Both the position numbers and the translations under genes were made by a program. Below the pieces are notes generated by a model. It was not told the DNA's origin and made no database searches. It saw only the letters and a program-made list of their open reading frames with translations. Shown piece after piece: positions 4,103 through 52,333 of a DNA stretch of 64,000 nucleotides. The DNA is from Spartobacteria bacterium. Its GTDB lineage: Bacteria > Verrucomicrobiota > Kiritimatiellia > RZYC01. Position 1 is the stretch's first letter. Every line of letters begins with the position of its first letter. Location: the NCBI GenBank assembly GCA_009930475.1, contig RZYC01000007.1, positions 6,188 to 70,187 of the forward strand. The letters run 5' to 3'.

Positions 4103-4180
4103 AAACCCAGCCTTCCATCGTTTTCATTCCCAAAATACGTGACATCAAATACCTAATTCGGTCGTAAATACAAATAAAAT

Positions 4181-4246
4181 ATTACTATTCTGCCTTTTTA
4201 TTATTTTTATCTTGATCTAATCACCCCCATCTGCCACCCTGGCACC
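4181..4246 (+). promoter_or_regulatory. Putative leaderless promoter of RAYT copy 1 with upstream 21-bp box
   Basis: ATTACTATTCTGCCTTTTTAT (4181-4201), N9, C, TTGATC (4212-17), N17, CACCCT (4235-40), N6, ATG 4247; same geometry at the other three copies; no Shine-Dalgarno. Confidence 0.6.
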
Positions 4247-5209
4247 ATGAAACATCGAATTAAACAATCCCCCCTCGCCTACTACCATTGCATGAGCCGA
4301 ATTGTCGGTCGTCAAATGCTGCTGGGCGAAATAGAAAAAGAACACATGCACTCTCTGATCCGACGCATTGAAGGCTTCACAGGGGTGCGTGTTCTGACCT
4401 ATGCAATCATGACAAATCATGTGCATCTACTCCTTGAAGAGCCTGATAGAGATACGGTTATTTCGGACGAAGAATTCAACCGACGGATGACATTCCTTTA
4501 TTCGGAGGCGGAGTTGGTTGACTTGAAAGAGCGCTGGGCGATGTGGGATGCGGCCAGTGTCGAAGCCGACAAGAGACGCTATCTGGTGCGAATGCACGAT
4601 ATCAGTGAATTCATGAAGCAATTAAAGCAGCGATTTTCTCGCTGGTACAATCAAAGGAATCAGCGATCAGGTGCATTGTGGGATACACGGTTTAAAAGCG
4701 TATTAGTCCAACCGGGATTACCATTACGAACGGTTGCGGCGTACATTGAAATGAATCCTGTTCGGGCAGGCATGGAAAAAAGTCCCCACTTCTACCGCTA
4801 TTGCGGCTTTGGGGAAGCCATTGGCGGAAATTCAAAAGCACGCGAGGGCATTCGCCTGATCACTAAATCGATGGATACCACATTGCATACCTGGCATGAA
4901 GTGTCAGCCCATTATTTGGAACGGATTCTAATGTATGATGACGTACGAAAACACCCGGAACAGGCATGCACTGATCACGATTATCTGCGCAGCAAGCTTG
5001 GTAATAAACTGAAACTGACCGATTTCGAACGACTTCTGTGTCGATGCCGTTACTTTACAGATGGACGGATTATTGGCAGCCGCGCCTTTGTTGACGCATA
5101 TTTTGAGGAACACAGACATGATTTTGGAACCAGGCGAATTTGCGGTGCGCGAAAAATCAAAGGTGGCTGGGATGCTCTTTTTGCGATAAGGGAACTTGTC
5201 GACTGGTAA
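4247..5209 (+). CDS. RAYT-like Y1 (HUH) tyrosine transposase, copy 1 (320 aa)
   Basis: YYHCMSRIVGR, HUH motif YAIMTNHVHLLL, GALWDTRFKSVLV, catalytic-Tyr motif AAYIEMNPVRAG. Confidence 0.9.
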   Translation: MKHRIKQSPLAYYHCMSRIVGRQMLLGEIEKEHMHSLIRRIEGFTGVRVLTYAIMTNHVHLLLEEPDRDTVISDEEFNRRMTFLYSEAELVDLKERWAMWDAASVEADKRRYLVRMHDISEFMKQLKQRFSRWYNQRNQRSGALWDTRFKSVLVQPGLPLRTVAAYIEMNPVRAGMEKSPHFYRYCGFGEAIGGNSKAREGIRLITKSMDTTLHTWHEVSAHYLERILMYDDVRKHPEQACTDHDYLRSKLGNKLKLTDFERLLCRCRYFTDGRIIGSRAFVDAYFEEHRHDFGTRRICGARKIKGGWDALFAIRELVDW

Positions 5210-5317
5210 CATCTATCATTTGACTTTTCCCTGTGATGCCTTAATAGTTCACTTTTACTTTGAGTTTATTTTTATGGAGCATCTTTTCTCAAACATACGA
5301 AATACGCAAGGATTCAC

Positions 5318-6067
5318 ATGACGTTCATACCCATTTTTCCAGCACCTGCCGCCTTGGTTTTCTCGCTGATGGAAAGTAGTGGACCAGGAAAGATCATCAT
5401 TTTAGTATTGGTCATTGCGTCCATTTTTGCATGGACTGTAATGATTTCGAAAGGACTAGATCTCTATAGTGTCAAACAGAAGAATCAACAGTTTAAAGAA
5501 GCATTTAAAGCCTACAACAATCCCACAACACTTCATGATCGCCGCACACAACTCAGCGTATGTCCACTTAGTGTCGTTTATTTTACGGGCTGCGAGAACC
5601 TGTATAAACTCATCGAAGAAATTGACGCGGCCAGAACGACGGACTCCGTACTAACGCAACCGCTTGGTTCATGGGATGACGACAAAACACATATCACGCC
5701 AAGCCAAATGGAGCTGGTTCGCAACCAAATTGATACGGAAACAGCGAATCAATATATAAAACTTGAGCAACACATGGGGATTCTCGCCAGTGCCGTAAGC
5801 ACCAGCCCCTTTTTAGGACTGCTCGGCACCGTATGGGGTGTTATGGAAGCATTTAGCGGCATGGCGGTTACGGGATCGGCGACATTGTCATCGGTCGCTC
5901 CGGGAATATCCAGTGCTCTGCTGACGACCATCGTTGGTCTGATTATCGCTATTCCATCTGCCATTGGATATAATTACCTATCCAACTGTATTCACAATCT
6001 TGGCATTGATATGGAAAATTTTGCAGATGAATTAACCACACGCATACACATTCAATTTGTCAAATAA
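5318..6067 (+). CDS. MotA/TolQ/ExbB proton channel protein
   Basis: LASAVSTSPFLGLLGTVWGVMEAF...VAPGISSALLTTIVGLIIAIPSAIGYN; AAGGA RBS before ATG. Confidence 0.92.
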   Translation: MTFIPIFPAPAALVFSLMESSGPGKIIILVLVIASIFAWTVMISKGLDLYSVKQKNQQFKEAFKAYNNPTTLHDRRTQLSVCPLSVVYFTGCENLYKLIEEIDAARTTDSVLTQPLGSWDDDKTHITPSQMELVRNQIDTETANQYIKLEQHMGILASAVSTSPFLGLLGTVWGVMEAFSGMAVTGSATLSSVAPGISSALLTTIVGLIIAIPSAIGYNYLSNCIHNLGIDMENFADELTTRIHIQFVK

Positions 6068-6091
6068 ACCATCCCGGCAGAGGCGCTACAC

Positions 6092-6502
6092 ATGAAACGG
6101 AAGCACAAACTGACCCGGGCAAGGCCAATCAGCGAGATTAATCTGACCCCGTTGATGGATTTGACGTTCATCCTCCTCATCACCTTCATTATCACTTTTC
6201 CTCTCATTGAACAGGGCATTCCCGTCAACCTGCCTCAAGGACAGGCCGAAGAACTCGACCCAGAAAAAACGCGCACCATTACATTGGATATCAGCGGGCA
6301 GGTGTATCTGGATGACCAGCCCATTGGAAAAGAGGCTTTAACCACGGAAATGAACACGCTGGCTCAGGCAAACCCCGAAATGATCATACTGGTACGAGCC
6401 GATGAAACCCTTAAATACGGCACAGTCGTAGACATCATGCGCATACTGAATCAAGCCGGCATGTCGAAGGTTGCACTGGTTACCCGTGCAGACAACGGTT
6501 AG
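6092..6502 (+). CDS. ExbD/TolR biopolymer transport protein
   Basis: EINLTPLMDLTFILLITFII, IPVNLP, VRADETLKYGTVVDIM. Confidence 0.92.
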   Translation: MKRKHKLTRARPISEINLTPLMDLTFILLITFIITFPLIEQGIPVNLPQGQAEELDPEKTRTITLDISGQVYLDDQPIGKEALTTEMNTLAQANPEMIILVRADETLKYGTVVDIMRILNQAGMSKVALVTRADNG

Positions 6503-6510
6503 TACGTAAA

Positions 6511-7374
6511 ATGGATAAGACGTTTAAAACATCTTTCAAAGTCAGTGCAATAGTGCATTCCTGCATTATTTTACTTTTGATTTTTATCCCCTTAATTCGC
6601 GGATGCATTGAAAAACTGCATCGTAAACCCCGTGAAATAGTCACTTTTGTAAGCTTGCAACAGGCACCTCCAGCGCCGGTCATCACAGAACCTGAACCCA
6701 AACCGGAATCACCCAATCCAAAAGAATCTATACCCGACAACATCAAAAAGATGCCTGAGCCCAAACCGTCTCCCACGCCCGTCCCCACAAAAAAAGCAAC
6801 GGCGACAGCGCAACCGACTATAACACCCACACCAACAGCGACGGCAGTAGCAACGGCGACAGCGACAGCAAAGCCATCCAGCACACCTAGACCACAACCA
6901 ACGGCCACACGAAAACCAAAGCCAAAGCCGACAAAAAAACCGATTCCTCGTCCAAAACCACGCATCATTTCGCGAAAGACACCCATGCCCCGCATTACGC
7001 AAAATGATATTCGGGATCTGCTTTCATCAGAACTATCATCCAGTCCGTCTCAAAACACGAGTAGCAGAAGCAGTGCAGGAAGCACCTCGACCACTCCACA
7101 GTGGTATTATCAGAACATCCAGCAAACCATGTACAACAACTGGAACCAGCCAACCAGTCTCACCGCCGGGATAGGACGCGTCGTGGACGTCAGACTGCGA
7201 ATAAACCGCGACGGATCAATCGCTTCTAAACGCATTACAGCCCCATCCGGCATCGGCGCACTAGATCGTTCTGTACAGGATGCACTTGATAAAACAGCGC
7301 GACTAAGCCCGCTTCCTTCTTCCATTAATGAACCCTACTTAGATATCACCGTTGAATTCATTTTAGAAAGATGA
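6511..7374 (+). CDS. TonB/TolA-like energy transducer
   Basis: N-terminal TM with SxxxH (SAIVHSC), long Pro/Thr/Lys-rich linker, C-terminal TonB_C-like domain (W..P...V.LRINRDGSI...SG..ALD.SV..A). Confidence 0.85.
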   Translation: MDKTFKTSFKVSAIVHSCIILLLIFIPLIRGCIEKLHRKPREIVTFVSLQQAPPAPVITEPEPKPESPNPKESIPDNIKKMPEPKPSPTPVPTKKATATAQPTITPTPTATAVATATATAKPSSTPRPQPTATRKPKPKPTKKPIPRPKPRIISRKTPMPRITQNDIRDLLSSELSSSPSQNTSSRSSAGSTSTTPQWYYQNIQQTMYNNWNQPTSLTAGIGRVVDVRLRINRDGSIASKRITAPSGIGALDRSVQDALDKTARLSPLPSSINEPYLDITVEFILER

Positions 7375-8393
7375 CCCAAATAACAAAAAAGCATTTCTCG
7401 CGAGGCATATTAGACCACATTAACCAGGTGCTAGGCCATGCATCCAGATCTCCCAGGGTAGGATTGGCTCTCGGGTCAGGAGCCGCACGTGGCTGTGCTC
7501 ATTTCGGAGTCATCGCCGCATTAAAAGAAGCGGGCATCCCCATTCACTGCATTGCCGGAACAAGCGCGGGCGCACTGGCAGGCGCATCGCTGGCATGCGG
7601 AACACTGGACGCCTTTGAAAAACGTGTACGATCACTTACGCTGAAAGACGTACTCTTTTTCTTCTCAGAACTACCGCTCAATCGTCAGGGATTAATCGAA
7701 GGGCGCCGCGTCATGGAATTCGTCCGTGAATTTATTCCGGTCGAACGCATCGAAGACCTGAGCATCCCGTTTCGATGCATTGCAACTGGGTTACAAACCG
7801 GCGAACCCATGGTATTTGATTCGGGCAACGTATTAGATGCTGTTCGCGCAAGTATCTCCATTCCCGGACTGTTTGTCCCTGTTCAGCGCAACGATAAATG
7901 GCTTATCGACGGTGCCATGTGTAATCCTGTACCCGTCGATCAGGTAAGGGAAATGGGTGCGGACTTCGTCATCGCAGTCGACGTAAACCAGCCCCACTCC
8001 AATCCTGATCCTCCCTCCCCCGCAGCATCGTTGGCGGAAAAATCCGACGAAGAGAAAACGACACCGGTTCCGTTCACCCCCATAAAAACAAAGCTCCAGG
8101 CATTGTTCTCACAAATTGAGTTCCCCCCGTGGAACCACAATACAGAGCAAAACAGTTCCAACCACCAGCCATTGAACATGATCGAAGTATCGCTGGTTGC
8201 TCTTCACCTTATGGAGGCTAGGCTGTCCCGTCTACAACTAACATTGCATCCACCAGATTTACTGATCGAACCTCACGCGTTTGACATCAACGTATTTGAA
8301 TTTTACCGAGCCAGCGAAATCATTGAACGCGGGCATGCCATCGCGCAACAGAGCTTGTCGTCTTTTCCTGCATTGCATCCCGATCACGACTAG
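7371..8393 (+). CDS. Patatin-like phospholipase (RssA/NTE family)
   Basis: GLALGSGAARG, GTSAG nucleophile motif, RASISIPGLF, LIDGA; ATGA overlap with the tonB-like gene. Confidence 0.92.
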   Translation: MTQITKKHFSRGILDHINQVLGHASRSPRVGLALGSGAARGCAHFGVIAALKEAGIPIHCIAGTSAGALAGASLACGTLDAFEKRVRSLTLKDVLFFFSELPLNRQGLIEGRRVMEFVREFIPVERIEDLSIPFRCIATGLQTGEPMVFDSGNVLDAVRASISIPGLFVPVQRNDKWLIDGAMCNPVPVDQVREMGADFVIAVDVNQPHSNPDPPSPAASLAEKSDEEKTTPVPFTPIKTKLQALFSQIEFPPWNHNTEQNSSNHQPLNMIEVSLVALHLMEARLSRLQLTLHPPDLLIEPHAFDINVFEFYRASEIIERGHAIAQQSLSSFPALHPDHD

Positions 8394-8451
8394 CTCCCAC
8401 CCCATGCACCATTAATCGACGGAATGAGATTTCCAATATTAATTTCGCTGA

Positions 8452-8488
8452 TGTCAATTTAAAATTTATAGTTAGTCTGATTTATTAG
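8452..8488 (-). repeat. Orphan copy of the RAYT-upstream unit (21-bp box, N9, ATTGACA) with no downstream gene
   Basis: Minus strand reads CTAATAAATCAGACTAACTAT-AAATTTTAA-ATTGACA; near-identical to the triplet at 50111-50229; lies between convergent genes. Confidence 0.7.
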
Positions 8489-8531
8489 GCGTGGGCGGGG
8501 CGGGCGAATCATTCTACCCGAAGCCTACGTT

Positions 8532-14347: not shown

Positions 14348-15361
14348 TCAACACCAGTGCCCCAGATCACGAATCGTGTATAGATTCAGCCATCCCCCTC
14401 GCATTTTCCGTGCTCCCGTTTTTCGCGACGCGCTGAAATAATCCTGATTCTCGACAAAAAACGCCTCAACAAAGGCCTGCGACCCAAAAACCTGCCCATC
14501 TGAAAAATATCGATTTTTACATTGCAGCCGCTCAAAGTCCGAGATCTTCGTCCGGTGCCTAAGCTTATCCGGAATCATATCCCTATCCAACATCGCAAAA
14601 TGCGGATTTTTACGAACCTCATCATACATCAGAACACGTTCCCAATAAATGGATGACGCAGCACTCCACTCATGAATCTGCTCTTTCACCCGAACCGCAT
14701 CGTCCAGTGGTTCCACCCCTGACACCAACGTCATAATTCCTTTCCGCGCAGCATCTACGCCCCCCATGGCTTCACCCAAACCGCAAAACCGATACGTTTT
14801 TGGATCAGCCACGATACCCGCACGTACCGGATTCATTTCAATATACGAAGCCATCGTGCGCAAGGCCGCACCATCTTCCACCAGCACACTTTTAAAACGA
14901 TGTTCCCACAAGGTTCCGCACCGCCCCGTACGCCGATTATACCAGCAGGAAAACCGTTGCTTCACCTGCTTCATAAACTCGCTAATATCATGCATGCGTA
15001 TCAGATACCGATGCTTATCCTCTTCAACCAGCTCCGTCAACCCCGTCCATTCCCATTCCGCCCAGTGCTCCCGAATTTCATCTACCTCCGCTTCTGTATA
15101 TAAACAACGCAGCCGACGTAGCAGCTCGTCATCATCTATCGCATGCACCGCATCGCGATCCGGCTCCTCCAACAATAAGTGAACATGATTTGTCATCACC
15201 GCATAAGTTAGCACACGTACACCGGTAAAACCCTCCACTTTCCGGATTAATCGCCGCATGTGCTCTTTTTCGACATGGCCCATCAACATCGCTCGGCCCA
15301 CAATACGCGACATACAATGATAATAAGCCAGATGATCTCTTTTAATTCGTTTACGTCTCAT
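14348..15361 (-). CDS. RAYT-like Y1 (HUH) tyrosine transposase, copy 2 (337 aa, most divergent)
   Basis: YYHCMSRIVGR, YAVMTNHVHLLL, GTLWEHRFKSVLV, ASYIEMNPVRAG; start reassigned to ATG 15361 by homology and promoter geometry. Confidence 0.9.
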   Translation of the reverse strand: MRRKRIKRDHLAYYHCMSRIVGRAMLMGHVEKEHMRRLIRKVEGFTGVRVLTYAVMTNHVHLLLEEPDRDAVHAIDDDELLRRLRCLYTEAEVDEIREHWAEWEWTGLTELVEEDKHRYLIRMHDISEFMKQVKQRFSCWYNRRTGRCGTLWEHRFKSVLVEDGAALRTMASYIEMNPVRAGIVADPKTYRFCGLGEAMGGVDAARKGIMTLVSGVEPLDDAVRVKEQIHEWSAASSIYWERVLMYDEVRKNPHFAMLDRDMIPDKLRHRTKISDFERLQCKNRYFSDGQVFGSQAFVEAFFVENQDYFSASRKTGARKMRGGWLNLYTIRDLGHWC

Positions 15362-15428
15362 ACCGTCAAGATAAACACATGATTCGAGGTGTTGCAAGCA
15401 ATATAATATAGTAATAGTCTGGAGATAT
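15362..15428 (-). promoter_or_regulatory. Putative leaderless promoter of RAYT copy 2 with upstream 21-bp box
   Basis: Minus strand: ATATCTCCAGACTATTACTAT (15428-15408), N9, C, TTGCAA (15397-92), N18, TATCTT (15373-68), N6, ATG. Confidence 0.6.
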
Positions 15429-15446
15429 TATTATTTATTTTTGACA

Positions 15447-30408: not shown

Positions 30409-30506
30409 AATTCACCATCCTGTTCATGTGTGCCCATACTCAACTTACATAAGGATATATAGTGCCGAAACACGGCAACCAAAGCAACCCATTTCTCGCT
30501 CAATAC

Positions 30507-30572
30507 ATAATAGAACAGTCTTACTATATGTTTTTTCTTGACCTTTATCACTGGATTGCGCATCGTGCAGAC
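30507..30572 (+). promoter_or_regulatory. Putative leaderless promoter of RAYT copy 3 with upstream 21-bp box
   Basis: ATAATAGAACAGTCTTACTAT (30507-27), N9, C, TTGACC (30538-43), N17, CATCGT (30561-66), N6, ATG 30573. Confidence 0.65.
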
Positions 30573-31535
30573 ATGAAAAACCGCATTAAACGTACGTCTT
30601 TAGCTTATTATCACTGCATGAGCCGAATTGTTGGCCGCCAGATGTTGCTGGGCACAAGTGAAAAAGAATATATGACGGCTCTGCTTCGCCGCATCGAAGG
30701 GTTTACCGGCGTGCGCATTCTGACCTATGCCCTTATGACCAACCACTTTCATCTGTTGCTGGAAGAACCTGATCGCGGTACGGTTATTTCCGATAGGGAA
30801 TTTCAGCGTCGAATGGCCTGCATTTATTCAATGGACGAACTAAATGAGCTGTATGAGCGATGGGCCTCGCTGGACGACGAAAGCACTGCCTTGGAAAAAC
30901 AGCGTTATCTGTCACGGATGCATGACATCAGCGAGTTTATGAAGCAAGTGAAACAACGGTTTTCCAGATGGTACAATCGGATGAATCATCGTTCGGGCAC
31001 GCTGTGGGATGCACGATTCAAGAGTGTACTGGTGGAGCCGGGCACACCGTTGCGAGTTGTTGCGGCCTATATTGAGATGAATCCCGTGCGGGCGGGAATG
31101 GAAACGGAGCCACACTTCTATCGCTACTGCGGTTTTGCCGAGGCGATGGGAGGCGGGTCAAAGGCGAGGGACGGCATCCGGACGATTGCCTCGTTCATGG
31201 ACACGGCCGCACCTGACTGGACGACCGTATCCGCGCACTACCTAGAACGCATTCTCATGTACGACGACGTGCGGAATCATCCGGAATGTGCCTGCACTGA
31301 TCATGATTATTTGCGAGAGAAACTGGGTCAAAAGTTGAAACTGACTGATTTCGAACGATTACTATGCCGCAGTCGCTATTTTATTGATGGACGTATCATC
31401 GGCAGCAAACAATTTGTTGAGCAGTTTTTTGTCGAACACAGGGATTATTTCGGGCAAAAACGAATTTCTGGAGCGCGAAAGATCAAGGGTGGCTGGACTG
31501 GGTTGTTTGCCATCAGAGACCTGGTGGACTGGTGA
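30573..31535 (+). CDS. RAYT-like Y1 (HUH) tyrosine transposase, copy 3 (320 aa)
   Basis: YYHCMSRIVGR, YALMTNHFHLLL, GTLWDARFKSVLV, AAYIEMNPVRAG; start ATG 30573 aligns with the other copies. Confidence 0.9.
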   Translation: MKNRIKRTSLAYYHCMSRIVGRQMLLGTSEKEYMTALLRRIEGFTGVRILTYALMTNHFHLLLEEPDRGTVISDREFQRRMACIYSMDELNELYERWASLDDESTALEKQRYLSRMHDISEFMKQVKQRFSRWYNRMNHRSGTLWDARFKSVLVEPGTPLRVVAAYIEMNPVRAGMETEPHFYRYCGFAEAMGGGSKARDGIRTIASFMDTAAPDWTTVSAHYLERILMYDDVRNHPECACTDHDYLREKLGQKLKLTDFERLLCRSRYFIDGRIIGSKQFVEQFFVEHRDYFGQKRISGARKIKGGWTGLFAIRDLVDW

Positions 31536-43736: not shown

Positions 43737-43812
43737 ATTTCATCCTCCTTATGTGATTAATTAGAACGGAGCACAGTTTATAATAAAAAACTCGAATTAT
43801 ACAACCAGCAAA

Positions 43813-43878
43813 TATATTATTCTGACTTACTATCATTTTCCTCTTGACCCGCCCCTGCAAATACCCCATCGTACCTGC
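43813..43878 (+). promoter_or_regulatory. Putative leaderless promoter of RAYT copy 4 with upstream 21-bp box
   Basis: TATATTATTCTGACTTACTAT (43813-33), N9, C, TTGACC (43844-49), N17, CATCGT (43867-72), N6, ATG 43879. Confidence 0.65.
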
Positions 43879-44841
43879 ATGAACCAACGAATAAAACACA
43901 GTCACTTAGCCTACTACCACTGCATGAGCCGCATCGTCGGCCGCGAAATGTTGCTTGGTAAAGCAGAAAAACAACACATGCATGCATTGATACGCCGTAT
44001 TGAAGGATTTACCGGCGTACGCGTATTAACCTATGCAATCATGACAAACCATGTACATCTGCTACTTGAGGAGCCTGATCGCAACACGGTGATCTCCGAT
44101 GAAGAATTTCGGCGGCGCATGAAGTACCTGTATACAGAAACTGAACTTTCGGAACTGTATGAAAGATGGGACATGTGGACACCGGAAAGCGTAGCCATGG
44201 ACATGCATCGCTACCTCATTCGCATGCACGATATCAGTGAATTCATGAAGCAATTAAAACAGCGGTTTTCTCGCTGGTACAACAAGCGTAATCAGCGGTC
44301 GGGAGCATTGTGGGATACGCGGTTTAAGAGCGTGCTGGTAGAGCCGGGGACTCCGCTTCGAACGGTGGCCGCATACATCGAGATGAATCCTGTACGGGCC
44401 GGCATGGAAAAAGAACCTCATTTCTATCCATTTTGCGGCTTTGCAGAAGCTATGGCGGGAGGTAGAAATGCGCAAACAGGGATACGCATTATTGCAGCAT
44501 CTATGGAGTCTGAATCACAGCATTGGGATGTTGTTTCTTCCCATTATTTCGAACGCATTCTGATGTACGACGAGGTACGTAATCACCCAAAACGAGCCCG
44601 CACAGACCACGATTATCTGCGGGAACAACTAGGCAAACGACTGGAACTAACCGATCATGAACGATTGCGATGCCGTAGTCGTTATTTCACGGACGGACGC
44701 ATCATCGGCAGCAAAGAATTTGTGGAGGAATACTTTCAAGAACACAAGCAGCACTTTGGATCAAAACGAACGTCCGGCGCACGAAAAGTCAAAGGCGGCT
44801 GGAATAATTTGTTTGCTCTGCGCGAGCTGATGGACTGGTAA
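43879..44841 (+). CDS. RAYT-like Y1 (HUH) tyrosine transposase, copy 4 (320 aa)
   Basis: YYHCMSRIVGR, YAIMTNHVHLLL, GALWDTRFKSVLV, AAYIEMNPVRAG. Confidence 0.9.
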   Translation: MNQRIKHSHLAYYHCMSRIVGREMLLGKAEKQHMHALIRRIEGFTGVRVLTYAIMTNHVHLLLEEPDRNTVISDEEFRRRMKYLYTETELSELYERWDMWTPESVAMDMHRYLIRMHDISEFMKQLKQRFSRWYNKRNQRSGALWDTRFKSVLVEPGTPLRTVAAYIEMNPVRAGMEKEPHFYPFCGFAEAMAGGRNAQTGIRIIAASMESESQHWDVVSSHYFERILMYDEVRNHPKRARTDHDYLREQLGKRLELTDHERLRCRSRYFTDGRIIGSKEFVEEYFQEHKQHFGSKRTSGARKVKGGWNNLFALRELMDW

Positions 44842-45012
44842 GCCGGGCGCATGATTTGTCCGTTGGCAGGACGTGAAATACTTTTGTTTGACTAATACGC
44901 TATAAGTATTCGCATAATCTGTGTTATTTATATAGTTCAAGTCAATGATTGATCCTTCGTGAATGAATGGTATGCAGGATTCAAGATATTTAACTCGAAC
45001 CACTGTGGTTTC

Positions 45013-48000
45013 ATGAAAACAAAAATTCTATACACTTTGTACATCTGCGTTTCGCTTTCGTTTCTTCCATTTTACGGCTTGGCTCAGACACCCCGAGTGA
45101 ATGAACTTTGCGCTCAGGCATCCGATCGCCTGCTTCGTTGGGATACCAACGGAATTCCAAAATTAGGGACAGGAGCATCCTGGTATGACGTAAACTTTTC
45201 CGATAGTGACTGGTCGCGTGGAGACGGTGATTTCGGCTATGGCGGCACAAATACAGTTGGAACAGATCTCGGCGAAGAAATGTACGGGCAATCCTTCTCG
45301 CTATATATTCGAACATCTTTCACTCCTGACAGCGCATTACTGACCGCGACATCTGCTTTACAACTGGTTATGAGTTACGATGACGGGTTCATTGCCTATC
45401 TCAACGGAAAAGAAATTGCCCGACGCAATATGGGCGCAACCAACAGCTTTGCCTATCACGATCAGCCCACTTTTAATGAGTGTATCAGCAACGAAACCAT
45501 CACCATCGGCATCGCCTCCAATCTGCTAATCTCCGGCACCAATGTACTGGCGATTCAAGGGCACAACCTCCTCATTGATCAATCTACTTTTCAGCTGTCA
45601 GCAGGTCTTAACGTGGAATCTCCTTCATCGGTACTTGTGCGATACAGCGACGAATGGGCTTACAAAGTAGGCACAACGGAACCTTCGGGAGGAGCCGTTG
45701 ATCCTGCATTTGACCCTGACTATTCCTCCATAAACACTGACTGGACTCAAACGGACTACGACGCATCCAACTGGTCCATCGGAGCTGGGCCCATTGGGTA
45801 CGGGGACGACGATGATGCGACCGACGTAAAGGATGAAGTGTACGGCATTGCCTATTCCGTATATATGCGGCAGACCTTTCAAGCAACGACAACGGACATC
45901 GAATCCACCAATTCATTGATTTTCACCGTCGACTTTGATGATGGGTACGTGGCCTATGTCAATGGAAAGGAAATCAGTCGCAGCAACTTGGGGACACTGG
46001 GAGAAATCATTCCGCATAATCAGGCAGCCGATCCTTCTCATGAGGCGGGAATTCCTGTGACAACGAATATTGGCACCGCCTCAAACTGGCTGACCGTTGG
46101 TGAAAACGTTTTTAGTGTGCAGGTGCATAATCAGGATAAATGGAGTTCAGACATGACGATGTCAGCCGATCTGGACATCGTAGGAACGACGACACAAGCC
46201 CTCGTACGTCACGAAAACAACTGGCAGTTTTTCATTGGCACCACCGAACCCCGAGACGCGGAACAAGCCCTGCGCGAACCAGATTTCTACGACTGGGTTG
46301 AACTCATCAACACCAATACCTCTCCCATCAATCTGAAAAACTGGGCGTTGAGCGATGACGCGACAAAACCCACCAAGTGGGTATTCCCTGATGTATCCAT
46401 CGGGGCCGGAAAAACCCTGCTTGTATTTTGTTCCGGATACGATATTCGCGAGACCAATGCCCCCTATCTGCACACCAGTTTCAAACTTTCCGCCTCGGGG
46501 GAATATCTGGGTCTATTCAATGCACAGAGCGTCCCCGTTTCGCAAATTACGCCCGAATTTCCTAAGCAACCCATGTTTCATTCTTATGGCTGGGACACTG
46601 TATCCCAAAGCTACCGCTACTTCGACACCCCCACGCCCGAAGAACCCAACAGCGGTTTAACCTACTCGGGCGTCGTAGCAAATCCTATATTCAACACACC
46701 GCAGGGATTTCATACAGGCTCCGTCAACGTAGAAATCAGACAGACAGACAATGCAGACATTCGTTATACGCTGGACGGAAGTGAACCTACACTAAACCAT
46801 GGAAGCGAATATAGTACGGCACTAACACTTACGTCCAACACGATAATAAGAGCCAAAGCCTTTCACACAAATGAGCTACCCTCGGAATGCATCACGGCAA
46901 CCTACCTCATTGACCAACCCGCTGTCATCCAGCAGTTGCCGGTCCTGTCCATGGTCGGAGATGCCGGTCGCACATTCTATGATCCAACGGGCATTACGTC
47001 CATCAACGGAGGCAAATACACAGGGGACGATCCCGACGAATCAAAATGGTCATCCACCAATGCCGTCAACGACTACAATATCCCCATGGAACACGGCCGC
47101 CCCTTTGAACGTTTTTCAGACATGGCCTACATTCCGTCCGGCACCAATACCGCACTGCAAACGGGATGCGGCATTCGTTTCGGCGGCGGTGACTACGTAC
47201 GTTCAATTACCAAGTCGGGCATATGGACCAACGGCCCCGCCTACAAGCCCTCTTTCAACCTCTATTTCCGCGACGAATACGGCGACAGCCGACTGGAAAA
47301 TCTAATTATCACCAATTCTCCTATAAAAGATTACGACAACCTTCGCCTGCGAGCCGGCAACAATGACTGGTATAACCCTTTCATACGCGACGAACTCAGT
47401 CGACGTTTAGCCATGGACTGCGGCTATGCGAGCAGCATCGGATCATTCCTAAACCTATATATCAACGGGGAATACAAGGGCTATTACAATATTGTTGAAA
47501 AATACGAGACGTCCTTCTTTCAGTCGTCCTACGACAGCACCAATCTTTGGGATGTGATAAAATCATACGAGGAAATCGCCGACGGTGACGCCATTGCATG
47601 GAGATACATGCTGAACTTCTTTACCAATCAAAACCTATCCGTCAGCAGCAATTATACCACAGCCTGCTCCCTTCTGGACGTGACAAACTTCGTCGACTAC
47701 CTGCTCATTGAAACCTACAGCGTCAATCCCGACTGGCCCGACAACAACTGGGCTGCGGCCAAAGAGCGCACCACCAACGGAATCTTCCGATTCTACGTAT
47801 GGGACTCTGAACAATGCTTCGTCGATCATTATATATCAGGCAACTGTTTCACCCAATATCCCGCATGGTGGGATGGCGGCGGAAAAGGGTTAAACGGGCA
47901 GGATACGCCCATTGCCAACATCTATCGCGCCCTGACCAACAACTCAGACTTCAAAATGCTCTTTGCCGACCGCATCCAAAAACAATTTTTCGATAGCGGC

Positions 48001-50001
48001 GCACTGACCGATAAAGAGATCGCAAAGCGTTTTGTCGAACTAGAAACAACCATGCGCGATACCGTCGAAGCCACCTTCGGGACATTCCGAACGACGATAA
48101 CCAATAACTGGATACCCAATCGACGCGCCATTGCCTTCCAGCAGTATACCGATGAAGGACTTTGGCCAGCACTAAGCGCACCGTCGTTTAGCACTACAAG
48201 CGGTACAGTGATGGCCGGTACATCCTTTTCCATGACCAACAACAACGGCTCCGGCACCATCTATTACACCCTCGACGGCAGCGATCCGCGTCTGTCCGGC
48301 GGCGGCATTGGCGGAACATCCTATACCACTGCGTTATCCATCGACTACAATACCATCATTCGCGCCCGCTGTTACGACAGCGGACAATGGAGCGCAGAAC
48401 GCACCGTACAGCTCATTACCGACGCACAGCCAACGCTGAAAATCACTGAGATCATGTACAATCCACCAGAACCGTCTGGGGCCGAAACCAACAGCGCCTT
48501 TACCGCGCAGGATTTTGAATATGTCGAATTCAAAAATACCGGCACGAACACCATAAGCCTCATCGACATGAAGCTCACCAATGCCATAAACTTCACTTTC
48601 CCCGCCTTCACTCTGGCTCCGGGTGCATTGGTGGTCATCGCGCACAACACCAACGCTTTTACCCTGCGCTACACGAATACCAGTTTTGTTGCGGGAGCCT
48701 ACGAAGGCAACCTTAACAACGCCGGGGAAACCATTAACCTGCTGGGCATCACAGGCACACAGGTTCTCACCTGCACATTCAACAACAGCTGGTATCCCCC
48801 CACCGATGGACTGGGTTATTCGCTCGTCCCCACCAACCCCGTACCCGAGGGCTCCCCCTCCGACATGGCCTACTGGCGCGTCTCCAGCGAAGTCAATGGC
48901 TCGCCTGGACACGACGATCCGACCTCAACATATATCCCGCCCCTGCTTGTCAACGAGGCACTGACCCATACCGATCTTCCTCAATCCGATGCCATTGAAC
49001 TCTATAACCCCACAGCTACCAATGTATCGCTGGACGGCTGGTATCTCACCGACAACCGCGATCTGCCCACCAAATATCAGATCACTGCCGGACAAAGCGT
49101 CGATGCCCACGGCTATTGGACCATCTATGAAAACACCGGGGATACCAACAACATCCCCATCACCTGTTTCGGCAATGCCTTTGCCTTGAACTCCCACGGT
49201 GACAGCGTGTTCCTGTTCTCGCCAAACCTGCAATACAGCCACGGATTCACCTTCGAAGGGGCCGAAAACGGCATCAGCCTCGGGCGATACGAAAACAGTA
49301 TTGGCACCGAGGATTTCCCCGCACAATGGAGCACAACCCTTGGAACAACCAACGACGGTCCGCGCGTGGGTCCCGTTGCCATCACCGAATTCATGTACAA
49401 TCCACCCGACGGACAGCATGAATTCATCGAACTGGTCAACATCACCACCACCGATGTCATGCTCTATAACACCACCAACTCGTGGCAGCTCACCGGCATC
49501 GGATATACCTTCCCCACCAACATCATCATGCACACCAACGGCGTGGTACTGCTTGTACGAGACACCATCACCCCGGAACAATTCCGTACATCCAACAACG
49601 TCCCCGCCAATGTCCCCATCTTCACCTATAGCGGAAAACTGGATAACGGAGGCGAAACTCTTCGCCTGAAAATGCCCGACACACCCGACGAAAAAGGCGT
49701 CCCCTATATTGTCACCGATAAAATCACCTATGATGATCAGTCGCCCTGGCCCACTAATGCCGACGGATACGGCTCATCATTGGCCCGTCGCACCGTGATA
49801 TCCTACGGGAATGAACCAACCAACTGGTTCGCCCAGTATCCGCCCACCATCGGCATTGCCCCACCCTTTACCCCCATCGTGATGCCAACACCCGTTCCTC
49901 CCGTTCCAACACCGACACCCTCGCCGACACCGACACCGTTCCCCACACCCGTCACAACCAACAGCACGCTGTCATGGCTCATGATTTTGTTGCTGGATTG
50001 A
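45013..50001 (+). CDS. Large secreted lamin-tail-domain / CotH kinase family protein (~1660 aa)
   Basis: Signal peptide MKTKILY...GLAQ; CotH motifs LRLRAGNND, DWPDNNW, YVWDSE; two YTLDGSxP (CHB_HEX_C-like) modules; four lamin-tail motifs (NE/TE...Y...E.IEL.N); PT-rich tail. Confidence 0.88.
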   Translation: MKTKILYTLYICVSLSFLPFYGLAQTPRVNELCAQASDRLLRWDTNGIPKLGTGASWYDVNFSDSDWSRGDGDFGYGGTNTVGTDLGEEMYGQSFSLYIRTSFTPDSALLTATSALQLVMSYDDGFIAYLNGKEIARRNMGATNSFAYHDQPTFNECISNETITIGIASNLLISGTNVLAIQGHNLLIDQSTFQLSAGLNVESPSSVLVRYSDEWAYKVGTTEPSGGAVDPAFDPDYSSINTDWTQTDYDASNWSIGAGPIGYGDDDDATDVKDEVYGIAYSVYMRQTFQATTTDIESTNSLIFTVDFDDGYVAYVNGKEISRSNLGTLGEIIPHNQAADPSHEAGIPVTTNIGTASNWLTVGENVFSVQVHNQDKWSSDMTMSADLDIVGTTTQALVRHENNWQFFIGTTEPRDAEQALREPDFYDWVELINTNTSPINLKNWALSDDATKPTKWVFPDVSIGAGKTLLVFCSGYDIRETNAPYLHTSFKLSASGEYLGLFNAQSVPVSQITPEFPKQPMFHSYGWDTVSQSYRYFDTPTPEEPNSGLTYSGVVANPIFNTPQGFHTGSVNVEIRQTDNADIRYTLDGSEPTLNHGSEYSTALTLTSNTIIRAKAFHTNELPSECITATYLIDQPAVIQQLPVLSMVGDAGRTFYDPTGITSINGGKYTGDDPDESKWSSTNAVNDYNIPMEHGRPFERFSDMAYIPSGTNTALQTGCGIRFGGGDYVRSITKSGIWTNGPAYKPSFNLYFRDEYGDSRLENLIITNSPIKDYDNLRLRAGNNDWYNPFIRDELSRRLAMDCGYASSIGSFLNLYINGEYKGYYNIVEKYETSFFQSSYDSTNLWDVIKSYEEIADGDAIAWRYMLNFFTNQNLSVSSNYTTACSLLDVTNFVDYLLIETYSVNPDWPDNNWAAAKERTTNGIFRFYVWDSEQCFVDHYISGNCFTQYPAWWDGGGKGLNGQDTPIANIYRALTNNSDFKMLFADRIQKQFFDSGALTDKEIAKRFVELETTMRDTVEATFGTFRTTITNNWIPNRRAIAFQQYTDEGLWPALSAPSFSTTSGTVMAGTSFSMTNNNGSGTIYYTLDGSDPRLSGGGIGGTSYTTALSIDYNTIIRARCYDSGQWSAERTVQLITDAQPTLKITEIMYNPPEPSGAETNSAFTAQDFEYVEFKNTGTNTISLIDMKLTNAINFTFPAFTLAPGALVVIAHNTNAFTLRYTNTSFVAGAYEGNLNNAGETINLLGITGTQVLTCTFNNSWYPPTDGLGYSLVPTNPVPEGSPSDMAYWRVSSEVNGSPGHDDPTSTYIPPLLVNEALTHTDLPQSDAIELYNPTATNVSLDGWYLTDNRDLPTKYQITAGQSVDAHGYWTIYENTGDTNNIPITCFGNAFALNSHGDSVFLFSPNLQYSHGFTFEGAENGISLGRYENSIGTEDFPAQWSTTLGTTNDGPRVGPVAITEFMYNPPDGQHEFIELVNITTTDVMLYNTTNSWQLTGIGYTFPTNIIMHTNGVVLLVRDTITPEQFRTSNNVPANVPIFTYSGKLDNGGETLRLKMPDTPDEKGVPYIVTDKITYDDQSPWPTNADGYGSSLARRTVISYGNEPTNWFAQYPPTIGIAPPFTPIVMPTPVPPVPTPTPSPTPTPFPTPVTTNSTLSWLMILLLD

Positions 50002-50110
50002 CCTGGAAGTCATTAGGCAGGGCCAATGCTGTAAGCATAAAGAGCAATCCTGTCGGCTGTATTCCTGTATAACAAAACAATGCAAAAACAAGGCCATGTC
50101 GTGCTCTTTA

Positions 50111-50229
50111 TGCAAGACAAAAATAATGGTTAGTCTGCTTTATTATCTTCCTATATGCAAGACGGAAATTATAGTTAGTCTGCTTTATTATCATCAAGAC
50201 AAAAATTATAGTTAGCCTGCTTTTCTATC
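50111..50229 (-). repeat. Three tandem ~36-bp orphan copies of the RAYT-upstream unit
   Basis: Minus strand: ATAGAAAAGCAGGCTAACTAT-N9-CTTGAT, ATAATAAAGCAGACTAACTAT-N9-CTTGCA, ATAATAAAGCAGACTAACCAT-N9-CTTGCA; 21-mers at 50208-28, 50171-91, 50126-46; between convergent genes. Confidence 0.88.
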
Positions 50230-50261
50230 AACATGACGTGGCGAACACGGGACGGGGAGCT

Positions 50262-51365
50262 CTACAGTAATTGGTGGAAATAGCGGGCGTATTGATCGGT
50301 GATGACGGACCAGTCGTAGCGGGTGGCAACATAATCGTAAAGTCGCTGGCGATCGGATTCCGAAGGGGTAACGGTCAAGGCTTGTTGCAGGGCATCGATA
50401 AGTAGATCCGCATCTGCGGTATTCACCAAAAACCCTTCATTGCCTAGAATCCAGCGGGTCGTTCCATAATCGTGAACGACTGCAGGCAGACCTGAAGCCA
50501 GTGCTTCGATATAAACATTACCAAATGCTTCTTCCTGGCTCAGGTGTAAGAAAACATCGGCTGAACGATACAGCTGCGGCATGCGATCCTGTGTGACAGT
50601 AAACTGATGATAGCGACCCGGCATCAGCTGATCGGAACAGGCCTTGCATTCCGCATGCAGCGGACCGGCACCGGCGACAGCCAGATGAACATCAGGAAGG
50701 CGGGCCGTGCTGCGAATACCTTCCAGTACGTGCTTACTGGGAATGAGGGCACTTACCATGAGTATTAGCGGGACGTTCTCAGGCAGTCCAAAAGATGTGC
50801 GGTCGGGTTTAATGGATTCCGGAAAGAATCGAGAGGCCTCAATCCCATTGGGAATGACTTCACAGCACCATTGGTCTTTATTGCGCTCCTCATATTCAGG
50901 GTTGGTGCAAACCAGTGCATCGCAGTTAAACCAACGAAATTCGCTATTGGCAGCGACAGCTGGATAATCACTGTTTTCCGTTATGAACACGTGTTTTGGA
51001 CAACCATTTTTGCGACCACTGCGCAACATCCAGCTGGTGAAGGGGTAACTGCACGTACAGGTGATATCGTAGTCGGCGGGTTTGTATATTTTCCGCACTC
51101 CATACATCCATGTAAACTCTTCATAGCGCACATCTGAACGAAGCACCGGTATTTTAGGCCAGCGTTCAAAGCGTTCGCGCGGAATACATTTCGCCGACAG
51201 ATAGCGATACGGTCGTCCGGCCATTTCTGGACCGGAACCCATGACCGTCACATCAAAATCATCACGCTGTGCCAGTCCGGCAGCGATGGCTTCAAATGCC
51301 ACTTCTGCACCGCGATGAACACGATGCAATCCGGGCAAGGCAAAGAGGACACGTATTTTGCTCAT
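50262..51365 (-). CDS. Glycosyltransferase family 4 (GT-B)
   Basis: RGAE, VIPNGIE, VSALIPSKH, EAFGNVYIEALASGLP; start ATG 51365 overlaps the upstream stop. Confidence 0.92.
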   Translation of the reverse strand: MSKIRVLFALPGLHRVHRGAEVAFEAIAAGLAQRDDFDVTVMGSGPEMAGRPYRYLSAKCIPRERFERWPKIPVLRSDVRYEEFTWMYGVRKIYKPADYDITCTCSYPFTSWMLRSGRKNGCPKHVFITENSDYPAVAANSEFRWFNCDALVCTNPEYEERNKDQWCCEVIPNGIEASRFFPESIKPDRTSFGLPENVPLILMVSALIPSKHVLEGIRSTARLPDVHLAVAGAGPLHAECKACSDQLMPGRYHQFTVTQDRMPQLYRSADVFLHLSQEEAFGNVYIEALASGLPAVVHDYGTTRWILGNEGFLVNTADADLLIDALQQALTVTPSESDRQRLYDYVATRYDWSVITDQYARYFHQLL

Positions 51366-52333
51366 GATTTTCTCCCAAGCAACACAGAAAGTCCTCCGGC
51401 AATCTTGCCGTATTCCACCGAATCCCTGCGTCCAGTCAAACGCATCCACAATAAACGCAGAGCAAAAGCAAACAGATAGACCCCATGCACCCACCATTCT
51501 GCCAGCACACCATAGCATTTTCGCTGGACGAGAAAGCGCCCTTTCCATCGCAGCTCATCACGGCGGCGGTCATGCAGGCGCGAGGTATCCGAAGATCCTC
51601 CGCCAAAATGTGTGATGGCTACAGCTGGATCAAAATAAACCCGCCAACCCGCTTTATGGACACGATAACAAAATTCAATATCCTCGCCATAAAAGAAAAA
51701 AGTGGGATCCAGGCAACCCATTGCATCCAGCACCTCCCGACGAATCATCATAAAAGCCCCGCCAATCCACTCCACATCGCGGGGGCCCGCCTTACGATCC
51801 CATTTCCCATCTTCGATATCTGCCCAGTCAAACAGCTTTGGCCAAGCGTAGGCCCACCCCAGTGCCCTCACTGTTTCACGATCAGGACGCGGAAAGAGCC
51901 GAGCAATATTCTGTACCGAACCATCACGGTTATGCAGCATACAGCTCATAAGGCCCACGCCCGGCTGATCCTTCATGACCTTCACGCAGTATTTAAAACA
52001 ACCATCATCCACCAGCGTATCACTGTTCAACAGAAGTACAAACTCAGGCAGACGGTTCTGTTCACGCAACCAGTCCACACCATAGGCATTGCCTCCGGCA
52101 AATCCCAAATTAGTTTCCATGACTAAAAAGCTCAGCCACGCATTCCATTCAGAATGTTTCTCCATAGCCTCACGAATGCGCGGCACCGAATCGTCGCCCG
52201 ACGCATTGTCTATGAGCACGACATCAAAATGCGGATACTCCTCATACTGTCGAGCCAGCGAGACCAGACAGTCGATCGTCATATCCGGCGTGCGATAATT
52301 TAAAACAATTGTCGATACGTGATTTATAGTCAT
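51362..52333 (-). CDS. Glycosyltransferase family 2 (WbbL/rhamnosyltransferase-like)
   Basis: IVLNY, IDNASGD, NLGFAGGN, LLNSDT, WIGGAFMMIR, FFFYGEDIEFC. Confidence 0.92.
   Translation of the reverse strand: MTINHVSTIVLNYRTPDMTIDCLVSLARQYEEYPHFDVVLIDNASGDDSVPRIREAMEKHSEWNAWLSFLVMETNLGFAGGNAYGVDWLREQNRLPEFVLLLNSDTLVDDGCFKYCVKVMKDQPGVGLMSCMLHNRDGSVQNIARLFPRPDRETVRALGWAYAWPKLFDWADIEDGKWDRKAGPRDVEWIGGAFMMIRREVLDAMGCLDPTFFFYGEDIEFCYRVHKAGWRVYFDPAVAITHFGGGSSDTSRLHDRRRDELRWKGRFLVQRKCYGVLAEWWVHGVYLFAFALRLLWMRLTGRRDSVEYGKIAGGLSVLLGRKS

Follow-up and report, generated by a model that had tools for sequence, protein, structure and literature searches.

In the REP/REPIN-RAYT system (REPtron) of E. coli and Pseudomonas, one or a few class 2 Y1/HUH genes are accompanied by a short palindromic sequence that carries a hairpin and a GTAG or CGTC tag and flanks the gene on both sides in inverted orientation. 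This gene-adjoining sequence is also found without a gene as singlets, tandem clusters and inverted pairs, often at the 3' ends of genes, and reaches tens to hundreds of dispersed copies per genome. The TIRYT genes and the TnpA_REP subclasses 2.1 and 2.3 encode long proteins in which extra sequence is inserted between beta3 and alphaC and the C terminus is extended; they occur in multiple diverged copies and have no REPs (PMC3733652, PMC6006769). Genomes with subclass 2.3 have more than five diverged copies (PMC6006769), while TIRYT genes are bracketed by terminal inverted repeats, many of which contain GGGGWSAS and some of which form small repeat families of singles, dimers and groups (TIRtron; PMC3733652). 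The left ends of IS200/IS605 elements such as IS608 and ISDra2 combine a Y1 enzyme with a conserved sequence 5' of the gene, and these elements have subterminal hairpins, a conserved right end and near-identical copies.

We analyzed a 64,000-nt stretch of a contig from a Spartobacteria bacterium (the window), which encodes four RAYT-like genes with a characteristic upstream module and, apart from them, a tandem triplet of this module (Table 1). In its logic, the closest system is the REPtron: the genes are of the class 2 Y1/HUH type, with the motifs NHVH and YIEMNP and a fold nearest to PDB entry 4er8, and the short sequence beside them also exists alone in intergenic regions, be it singly, in tandem clusters or as inverted pairs, commonly at the 3' ends of genes. 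However, the unit described here is non-palindromic, forms no hairpin and lacks a GTAG or CGTC tag, and the module is present only upstream of the gene, where it is fused to the promoter, with none detected in the gene's 3' flank by a box scan. The copy number of the module appears low, with four gene-less loci in ~138 kb and one additional near-identical copy ('X') in the run assemblies, and the protein family comprises dozens of diverged paralogs where a REPtron has one or a few genes. The TIRYTs and TnpA_REP subclasses 2.1 and 2.3 appear closest in protein type, but no terminal inverted repeats bracket the genes in our window and the sequence GGGGWSAS is absent. No box in inverted orientation directly follows any of the four genes; the closest inverted solo modules are found 4.3 kb (copy 1) and 6.3 kb (copy 4) downstream, beyond intervening genes. 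A one-sided promoter box with gene-less copies is described in neither PMC3733652 nor PMC6006769. Compared with the left ends of IS200/IS605 elements, the locus shares the Y1 enzyme and the conserved sequence 5' of the gene, but has no subterminal hairpins and no conserved right end, and its protein copies are 50-77% identical instead of near-identical, with no indication that they moved recently. The hexamer TTGAT/TTGAC resembles TTGAT, the target of ISDra2; we regard this as a lead only.

Table 1. Positions of the RAYT-like genes, their upstream modules, the gene-less modules and neighboring features. Positions refer to the window unless a contig is named.
Feature	Position	Strand	Evidence
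RAYT-like gene copy 1	4247-5209	+	Pfam Y1_Tnp
RAYT-like gene copy 2	14348-15361	-	Pfam Y1_Tnp
RAYT-like gene copy 3	30573-31535	+	Pfam Y1_Tnp
RAYT-like gene copy 4, 320 aa	43879-44841	+	Pfam Y1_Tnp; AF2 model, pLDDT 89
Gene-linked module of copy 1: CTGCCT-N16-TTGATC, 30 nt to ATG at 4247	4180-4217	+	
Gene-linked module of copy 2: CAGACT-N18-TTGCAA, ~31 nt to ATG at 15361	15392-15431	-	
Gene-linked module of copy 3: CAGTCT-N16-TTGACC, 30 nt to ATG at 30573	30506-30543	+	
Gene-linked module of copy 4: CTGACT-N16-TTGACC, 30 nt to ATG at 43879	43812-43849	+	
Tandem array of three gene-less RAYT-type 5' modules (a, b, c)	50106-50232	-	Direct repeats; PWM; second lineage
Unit a: CAGACT 50137-50132, 16-nt spacer, TTGCAT 50115-50110	50110-50147	-	PWM 23.2 bits (at 50147); pattern scan
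Unit b: CAGACT 50182-50177, 16-nt spacer, TTGCAT 50160-50155	50155-50192	-	PWM 22.8 bits (at 50192)
Unit c: CAGGCT 50219-50214, 16-nt spacer, TTGATG 50197-50192	50192-50229	-	PWM 25.1 bits (at 50229)
Fourth gene-less module, between convergent patatin-like (+) and LemA (-) genes	8452-8489	-	PWM 31.8 bits (at 8489)
Gene-less module on contig L141	L141:11262	+	
Gene-less module on contig L143	L143:9831	-	
1680-aa ORF with domains CotH, LTD, Fn3_assoc and CHB_HEX_C; the array points at its 3' end	44959-50001	+	
GT4 glycosyltransferase gene, with 29 nt between its end and unit c; 367 aa in the database gene call	50262-51548	-	
12-bp perfect inverted repeat GCATAAAGAGCA / TGCTCTTTATGC, 55-nt loop; right arm overlaps the end of unit a	50035-50113	.	

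All four RAYT-like genes of the window scored above the Pfam cut-off for Y1_Tnp, and NHVH (the HUH motif) and YIEMNP (the tyrosine motif of class 2) were both invariant in the alignment. The AlphaFold model of copy 4 had its best PDB match in 4er8, which is the E. coli RAYT with a bound REP hairpin, followed by the transposases of ISDra2 and IS608. A recognisable HTH in the C-terminal domain gave no Pfam or PDB sequence signal. About 26 paralogs cross-aligned in the conserved part of the coding sequence, while their upstream regions did not at 80%. When we searched a collection of genome contigs that does not include the window's species with the RAYT alignment, we obtained distant relatives only, with at most 50% identity over the best segment and 44% for the top full-length match.

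The module upstream of these genes has a common layout in the four genes of the window and in the paralogs L017, L019, L141, L144 and L146, which are encoded on Logan contigs of the same species. Its parts are, in order, a stretch rich in A and T, the CWGNCT box, an AT-rich spacer of 16 nt and the TTGNNN hexamer, from which 29-31 nt lead to the ATG; the spacer is 18 nt long in a subfamily of 337-aa RAYT-like proteins. The CWGNCT-N16-TTG spacing was present in the gene-linked modules R1, R3, R4 and L019, and was assigned by eye in L017 (CAGGTT-N16-TTGACA). In the gene-linked copies, the TTGNNN hexamer is followed by 17 nt, a poor hexamer, 6 nt and the ATG. This spacing fits the -35 element of a leaderless sigma-70-type promoter with a weak -10, and the box, at about -52 to -57, is best read as a putative protein-binding site beside the -35. 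As regards a sigma-70 promoter with an upstream operator, the hexamer lies at a promoter-like distance, but the -10 hexamers of the gene-linked copies are not conserved, so that the promoter is a putative one, read from the spacing. The array units have no gene behind them.

A repeat search of the window identified the array as a family of three direct repeats (50106-50150, 50151-50195 and 50188-50232), with start-to-start spacings of 45 and 37 bp and with 87% and 73% identity of the second and third copy to the first. The units are arranged head-to-tail on the minus strand. Hence, the preliminary description of this locus as a minus-strand tandem triplet with offsets of 45 and 37 bp was correct, as was its placement between convergent genes, which are the CotH/LTD ORF on the plus strand and the GT4 gene on the minus strand. 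Read on the minus strand, the unit is GATAATAAAG-CAGACT-AACTATAATTTCCGTC-TTGCAT, corresponding to AT-rich stretch, box, 16-nt spacer and hexamer. Unit c differs by a CAGGCT box and a TTGATG hexamer, and unit a has CCATTAT in its spacer. The hexamer variants CTTGAT and CTTGCA were said to be the same as those upstream of RAYT copies 1 and 2, and we found them there. By contrast, the repeat junctions do not fall just after the TTG hexamer, as had been proposed: the homology between the units continues for 7-8 nt beyond the TTG (CTTGCATAA), and the ancestral period is 41 bp. The TTGATG hexamer of unit c arises where CTT from unit c is joined to GATGAT from unit b. The units end 7-8 nt past the hexamer and have no -10 region, start codon or gene.

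We derived a position weight matrix (PWM) of 38 columns from five gene-linked modules only (R1, R3, R4, L017 and L019), with no gene-less unit in the training set, and scanned both strands of the window, using 50 first-order Markov shuffles as control. The three training sites within the window were followed directly by the four gene-less units, with scores between 22.8 and 31.8 bits (Table 1). The best other site in the window reached 11.5 bits, and the maxima of the shuffles had a mean of 10.7 bits and a largest value of 16.5 bits. The gene-less units therefore outscore both the background and the shuffles, which confirms the original observation: the triplet consists of copies of the RAYT-upstream module, and the match is far beyond chance.

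We next considered the age and stability of the array. Parts of the region are present in ten public runs, none of them an RNA run, which are metagenomes from wastewater or activated sludge or of unspecified origin. Runs X1 and X2 contain the window's own sequence, and X3 and X4, which come from another study, contain a second lineage that differs at ~3-4% of positions in the flanking genes; the array comparison excludes the low-coverage runs X5, X6, X8 and X9, which have no contig over the intergenic region. The array sequence of the window is identical in an independent 16.7-kb Logan contig of run X1 and is, therefore, not an artefact of one assembly. The second lineage carries the array as well, and its units a, b and c have the same unit-specific differences as those of the window. 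Its 71-nt contig running from unit a into unit b has 4 bases fewer than the window and its 60-nt contig running from unit b into unit c has an added TATG, and both junctions read TTATCATTATGCAAGAC, giving a spacing of 41+41 bp versus 45+37 bp in the window. The depth was ~20 for the shared 41-mer versus 10.5-11.5 for the flanks, which fits three units, although a fourth is also possible; copy number in this lineage was read from short Logan contigs and depth and not from spanning reads. Because unit-specific differences are common to both lineages, the triplication is older than the lineage split. The preliminary description had suggested comparing strains for variation in copy number; on the evidence of the contigs none is seen, with three units in both lineages. 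As far as can be read from these sequences, the array is old, stably inherited and not recently amplifying, and only its junctions appear to have drifted since the lineages separated, to 41+41 bp in one and 45+37 bp in the window.

The array units are 13-27% diverged from one another. Between the strains we counted at most ~2 substitutions in ~100 nt of box cores versus 6 in 104 nt of adjacent spacer, which are small numbers, and the tendency of positions that vary between units a, b and c to spare the bases invariant in the family reaches only p ~0.13; constraint on the units is thus not statistically demonstrable. The arms of the 12-bp inverted repeat downstream of the array have no changes in the second lineage and its loop has five. 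The 41-bp unit begins and ends in ATAAT (…TTGCATAAT|GATAATAAAG…), so that slipped-strand duplication at this microhomology suffices to make the array. The head-to-tail units, the ATAAT microhomology and the indel drift at the junctions are indeed features of a slippage minisatellite. The array differs from such a sequence in that its unit is a recognisable module of a gene family that is duplicated likewise at other loci and in other lineages, and it differs from a VNTR in its equal copy number in both lineages, as judged from contigs and not from spanning reads. RAYT-like copies 1, 2 and 4, the three that were compared, are present in the second lineage, and no insertion polymorphism was seen among them. 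The GT4 protein has its next homologue at only ~57% identity, and hence there is no syntenic relative for a comparison of the locus; an exact look-up of the 428-aa ORF gave no match.

The triplet had been described as lacking a RAYT gene, and this was borne out. Translation of the three minus-strand frames downstream of the array revealed no RAYT N-terminus, and tblastn of the four proteins against the window (E ≤ 50) yielded only noise outside the four genes, which rules out a RAYT pseudogene beside the array. We also rejected a 41-aa ORF (start at 50097, minus strand) as a conserved small protein, all four of its strain differences being non-synonymous. No intrinsic terminator was predicted. 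The array contains no hairpins, and its two strands, folded as ssDNA, had z-scores of +1.33 and +1.38, that is, less structure than the shuffles.

Could the units be exapted promoters for an antisense or small RNA that reads into the convergent gene from its 3' end? The c/b junction of the window contains TTGATG-18-TATAAT, which agrees with the sigma-70 consensus in 10 of 12 positions, each of the four solo loci is directed at the 3' end of a gene that converges on it, and the conserved 12-bp stem lies downstream. However, this near-consensus site arises because the c/b junction is 4 bp shorter in the window strain, and it is absent from the second lineage, which has four more bases at this junction. 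Moreover, there is no conserved -10 behind units a or b, no Rfam family matched at E ≤ 1 and the fold downstream of the array was not significant (z = -1.43). We consider a dedicated antisense promoter array very improbable.

Gene-less modules are not confined to the triplet. The species sequence that we surveyed amounts to ~138 kb (the window and contigs L017, L019, L141, L143, L144 and L146) and contains 10 gene-linked modules and four gene-less loci (Table 1). The orphan units anticipated in the preliminary description thus exist at four loci, within ~138 kb only. The single module at 8452-8489 is base-for-base identical in the second lineage, where the sequence just beyond it shows an 18-nt indel and ~6 substitutions. 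The solo module of L143 and the gene-linked module of L144, which belongs to a different paralog, have all 16 spacer bases and TTGCA in common. In all four cases the gene-less module is oriented toward the 3' end of a convergently transcribed neighbor (by symmetry p ~0.06), and none is located upstream of a gene that it could serve. Similarity among the solo boxes is greater than that between a solo box and the box of the bracketing RAYT gene. We had considered a composite arrangement in which an upstream box and an inverted solo box kilobases downstream form a pair of terminal inverted repeats, which fits copy 1 with the module at 8469 and copy 4 with the triplet, and rejected it on this similarity among solo boxes and on the direct orientation of the L141 solo module.

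Outside these loci, the sole other contig match at 80-85% likeness was copy 'X', which agrees with unit b in 31 of 34 bases. It sits on a 6.1-kb contig (X1) and a 5.9-kb contig (X3), with a C-rich stretch before it and CTTGACA… after it (flanks GCCCGCCCATACCACCCACAGGCATATCAT ... CTTGACACCCTTTGGATATTTTCGTGCAGATCGG). This is in contrast to the paralogs, whose upstream regions fail to align with one another at 80%; the common ancestry of the triplet and copy 'X' is therefore unusually recent. A search of JGI metagenome contigs with the pattern ATAAAKCAGRCTAACYAT gave 119 matches, all of them due to chance; the best agreed in 26 of 39 positions, and none had similarity beyond the forced bases.

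The gene-less loci bear on a neutral explanation of the array, according to which a RAYT-like gene convergent with the CotH/LTD gene was deleted and the remaining promoter stub was duplicated by slippage and is now decaying. The divergence of the units by 13-27%, the junction indels between the strains and the lack of statistically significant constraint are what such decay would leave, and AT-rich direct repeats are prone to slippage. The explanation would, however, need four clean deletions, as the four gene-less loci keep a complete CWGNCT-N16-TTG core and nothing of the gene. It also has to accommodate a single orientation rule at four of four loci (p ~0.06) and a box at 8452-8489 that is identical between strains although its immediate flank is scrambled. 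On balance, we regard a neutral relic as unlikely.

We asked whether tandem duplication is a property of the module in other genomes. We compared 450-nt upstream regions of 21 RAYT-like genes, of which four lie in the window, six on the species contigs L017, L019, L141, L143, L144 and L146, and 11 in distant Verrucomicrobiota, with 925 half-overlapping control windows from the same loci, with tandem repeats of ≥35 nt as the threshold. Such repeats were present in 4 of the 21 RAYT-upstream regions versus 8 of the 925 controls (odds ratio 27, Fisher p = 8e-5), and the eight positive controls represent no more than four loci, the triplet being one of these. Within a Puniceicoccales MAG, three paralogs each have a tandem duplication of 134-145 nt that comprises the module, the ATG and approximately the first 25 codons. 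Identity within these loci is 84%, 83% and 94% versus 62-75% between loci (three loci compared); the copies group by locus, and the duplications are therefore local or locally homogenised. In this MAG there are also two modules inverted head-to-head (L012) and one module on its own (L009:6998). A ladder of AAGCGACTAGGGACA with five steps precedes the RAYT-like gene of an unrelated MAG, and in the species of our window L143 has two inverted boxes 34 nt apart ahead of the gene. Local duplication at the module is a habit of this family and recurs in other lineages.

This habit raises the possibility that the module is a recombinogenic or mobile end, whose box is nicked or rejoined by the Y1/HUH enzyme, with repeated cleavage or one-ended copying generating ladders and solo copies. 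The module would then be the functional analogue of REP for RAYT-like genes without palindromic repeats. Several observations are consistent with such an activity. The duplications start 8-12 nt upstream of the box at independent loci of independent lineages, namely L007, L008, L009, L001, L143 and the triplet of the window, and they are 27-fold enriched over the control windows. The solo copies have clean ends and no gene remnant, that of L143 being almost identical to the gene-linked module of L144; the head-to-head inverted pairs (L012 and L143) recall REPIN doublets; and the protein folds like the RAYT of E. coli that cleaves REP. On the other hand, the units have no hairpin, whereas hairpins are, to our knowledge, recognised by all characterised Y1 enzymes (IS608, ISDra2 and TnpA_REP of E. 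coli). The array is old and has the same copy number in two lineages, the comparison of copies 1, 2 and 4 showed no insertion polymorphism, and hardly any near-identical copies exist, the whole metagenome assembly containing a single one. In addition, the ATAAT microhomology accounts for the duplication without an enzyme. A recombinogenic end therefore seems doubtful to us, and the array appears not to be an actively transposing end at present. A more far-reaching version would make box-N16-TTG a site embedded in a promoter and free of hairpins that is recognised or nicked by RAYT-like Y1/HUH enzymes of a multi-copy branch for which no associated repeats are reported, in which the action of the enzyme seeds ladders, inverted doublets and solo copies and the triplet is the REP-equivalent of a one-ended type of Y1 element. 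We give this version little credence.

The preliminary description had argued for a discrete mobile or recombinogenic end and against a mere promoter. One part of this stands: the module is discrete and separable, and it is more than the private promoter of one gene, because it occurs in gene-less copies and is the site of recurrent duplication. The part concerning mobility finds no support in these data. Our preferred reading, to which we assign a probability of roughly 45%, is that the triplet, three tandem repeats of the 5' control module without a gene, probably acts as a binding array or as a weak outward promoter. According to this reading, which is drawn from sequence comparison, a solo module would have been duplicated twice in place as a 41-bp unit at the ATAAT microhomology, before the lineages split. 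The array would probably offer three double-stranded candidate sites for a protein that reads the box at RAYT promoters, and the candidate readers are the RAYT-like proteins themselves or their regulator. It could serve as a titration or boundary site, and weak outward promoter activity, antisense to the 3' end of the CotH/LTD gene, is possible.

Overall, our analysis suggests that the module may be a concrete DNA partner for the long, multi-copy RAYT-like enzymes (TnpA_REP subclasses 2.1 and 2.3, the TIRYTs), to which the literature ascribes no associated repeats. If the protein binds or cuts the module, substrate recognition by Y1/HUH enzymes would extend beyond hairpins, and this would help to explain how one genome keeps 75 or more diverged RAYT-like copies. 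If it neither binds nor cuts, the triplet would simply be an orphan promoter array. In either case, the triplet provides small but clean evidence that the control box of an expanded RAYT-like family has a separate existence.

The RAYT-type 5' module (CWGNCT box, 16-nt spacer and TTGNNN hexamer) occurs without a gene at two loci in the window, as a solo module at 8452-8489 and as a minus-strand tandem triplet (units a, b and c) at 50106-50232. Each gene-less locus follows a plus-strand RAYT-like gene at a distance of a few kilobases (copy 1 for the solo module, copy 4 for the triplet) and is inverted relative to the box of that gene. A reading of gene-linked box and gene-less locus as a terminal inverted repeat is nevertheless unsupported, because the solo module on L141, another contig of the same species, is in direct orientation. 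The gene directly following copy 4 (44959-50001) encodes a 1680-aa protein in which a CotH kinase domain is accompanied by four lamin-tail domains and Fn3_assoc/CHB_HEX_C modules; its C-terminal stalk is rich in Pro/Thr.

When comparing the window with L139, we observed a strain-variable patch immediately past the solo module's box (window 8489-8512; L139:14180-14225). This G-rich tract, which reads GGCGTGGGCGGGGCGGGC in the window, has an 18-nt indel and about six substitutions; despite this variation next to it, the box itself is identical in both sequences. A perfect inverted repeat of 12 bp lies next to the triplet, its right arm overlapping the end of unit a. Between the window and the second strain lineage, the loop of this repeat has 5 substitutions and both arms are unchanged. 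The overall fold was not significant (z = -1.43). At the c/b junction (50168-50197, minus strand), the window strain is 4 bp shorter and reads TTGATG-18-TATAAT, matching the sigma-70 consensus at 10 of 12 positions; the related strain, with its longer junction, lacks this site.

Coordinates of repeats, bracketed spans and duplications
Feature	Coordinates	Details
Perfect 12-bp inverted repeat	window 50035-50046 and 50102-50113	arms GCATAAAGAGCA / TGCTCTTTATGC; 55-nt loop
Copy 1 box to solo module	window 4180-8489	brackets 4 genes
Copy 4 box to triplet	window 43812-50232	brackets 1 gene
Tandem duplication, Puniceicoccales MAG	L007:4799/4944
Tandem duplication, Puniceicoccales MAG	L008:6207/6341
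Tandem duplication, Puniceicoccales MAG	L009:239/380

Modules are also duplicated or inverted elsewhere. In a Puniceicoccales MAG, each of three RAYT-like paralogs has a tandem duplication of 134-145 nt that spans box and promoter as well as the ATG and about 25 codons, and the copies share 83-94% identity within a locus versus 62-75% between the three loci. Directly upstream of other RAYT-like genes we found two facing AGACAGTCTAA boxes 24 nt apart (L012:6025-6075) and two inverted AGCCTG boxes 34 nt apart (L143:9800-9900), head-to-head or inverted modules that both recall REPIN doublets. A five-step AAGCGACTAGGGACA ladder and a 62-nt duplication precede a distant RAYT-like gene in an uncultured Verrucomicrobiota MAG (L001:9760-9900).

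RAYT-like paralogs have coding sequence in common at 80% or more, but not their upstream regions. In run X1, which carries the window's own sequence, contig depths added up to about 26x single-copy across the conserved HUH-coding part of copy 2 (15180-15361) and fell to the single-copy level upstream of the ATG. About 90 diverged RAYT-like paralogs (locus tags EOL87_) come from a single 'Spartobacteria bacterium' MAG. Even against the best-matching of these, the window copies reach only 73-79% identity, which indicates that the RAYT-like expansion is common to at least two related genomes.
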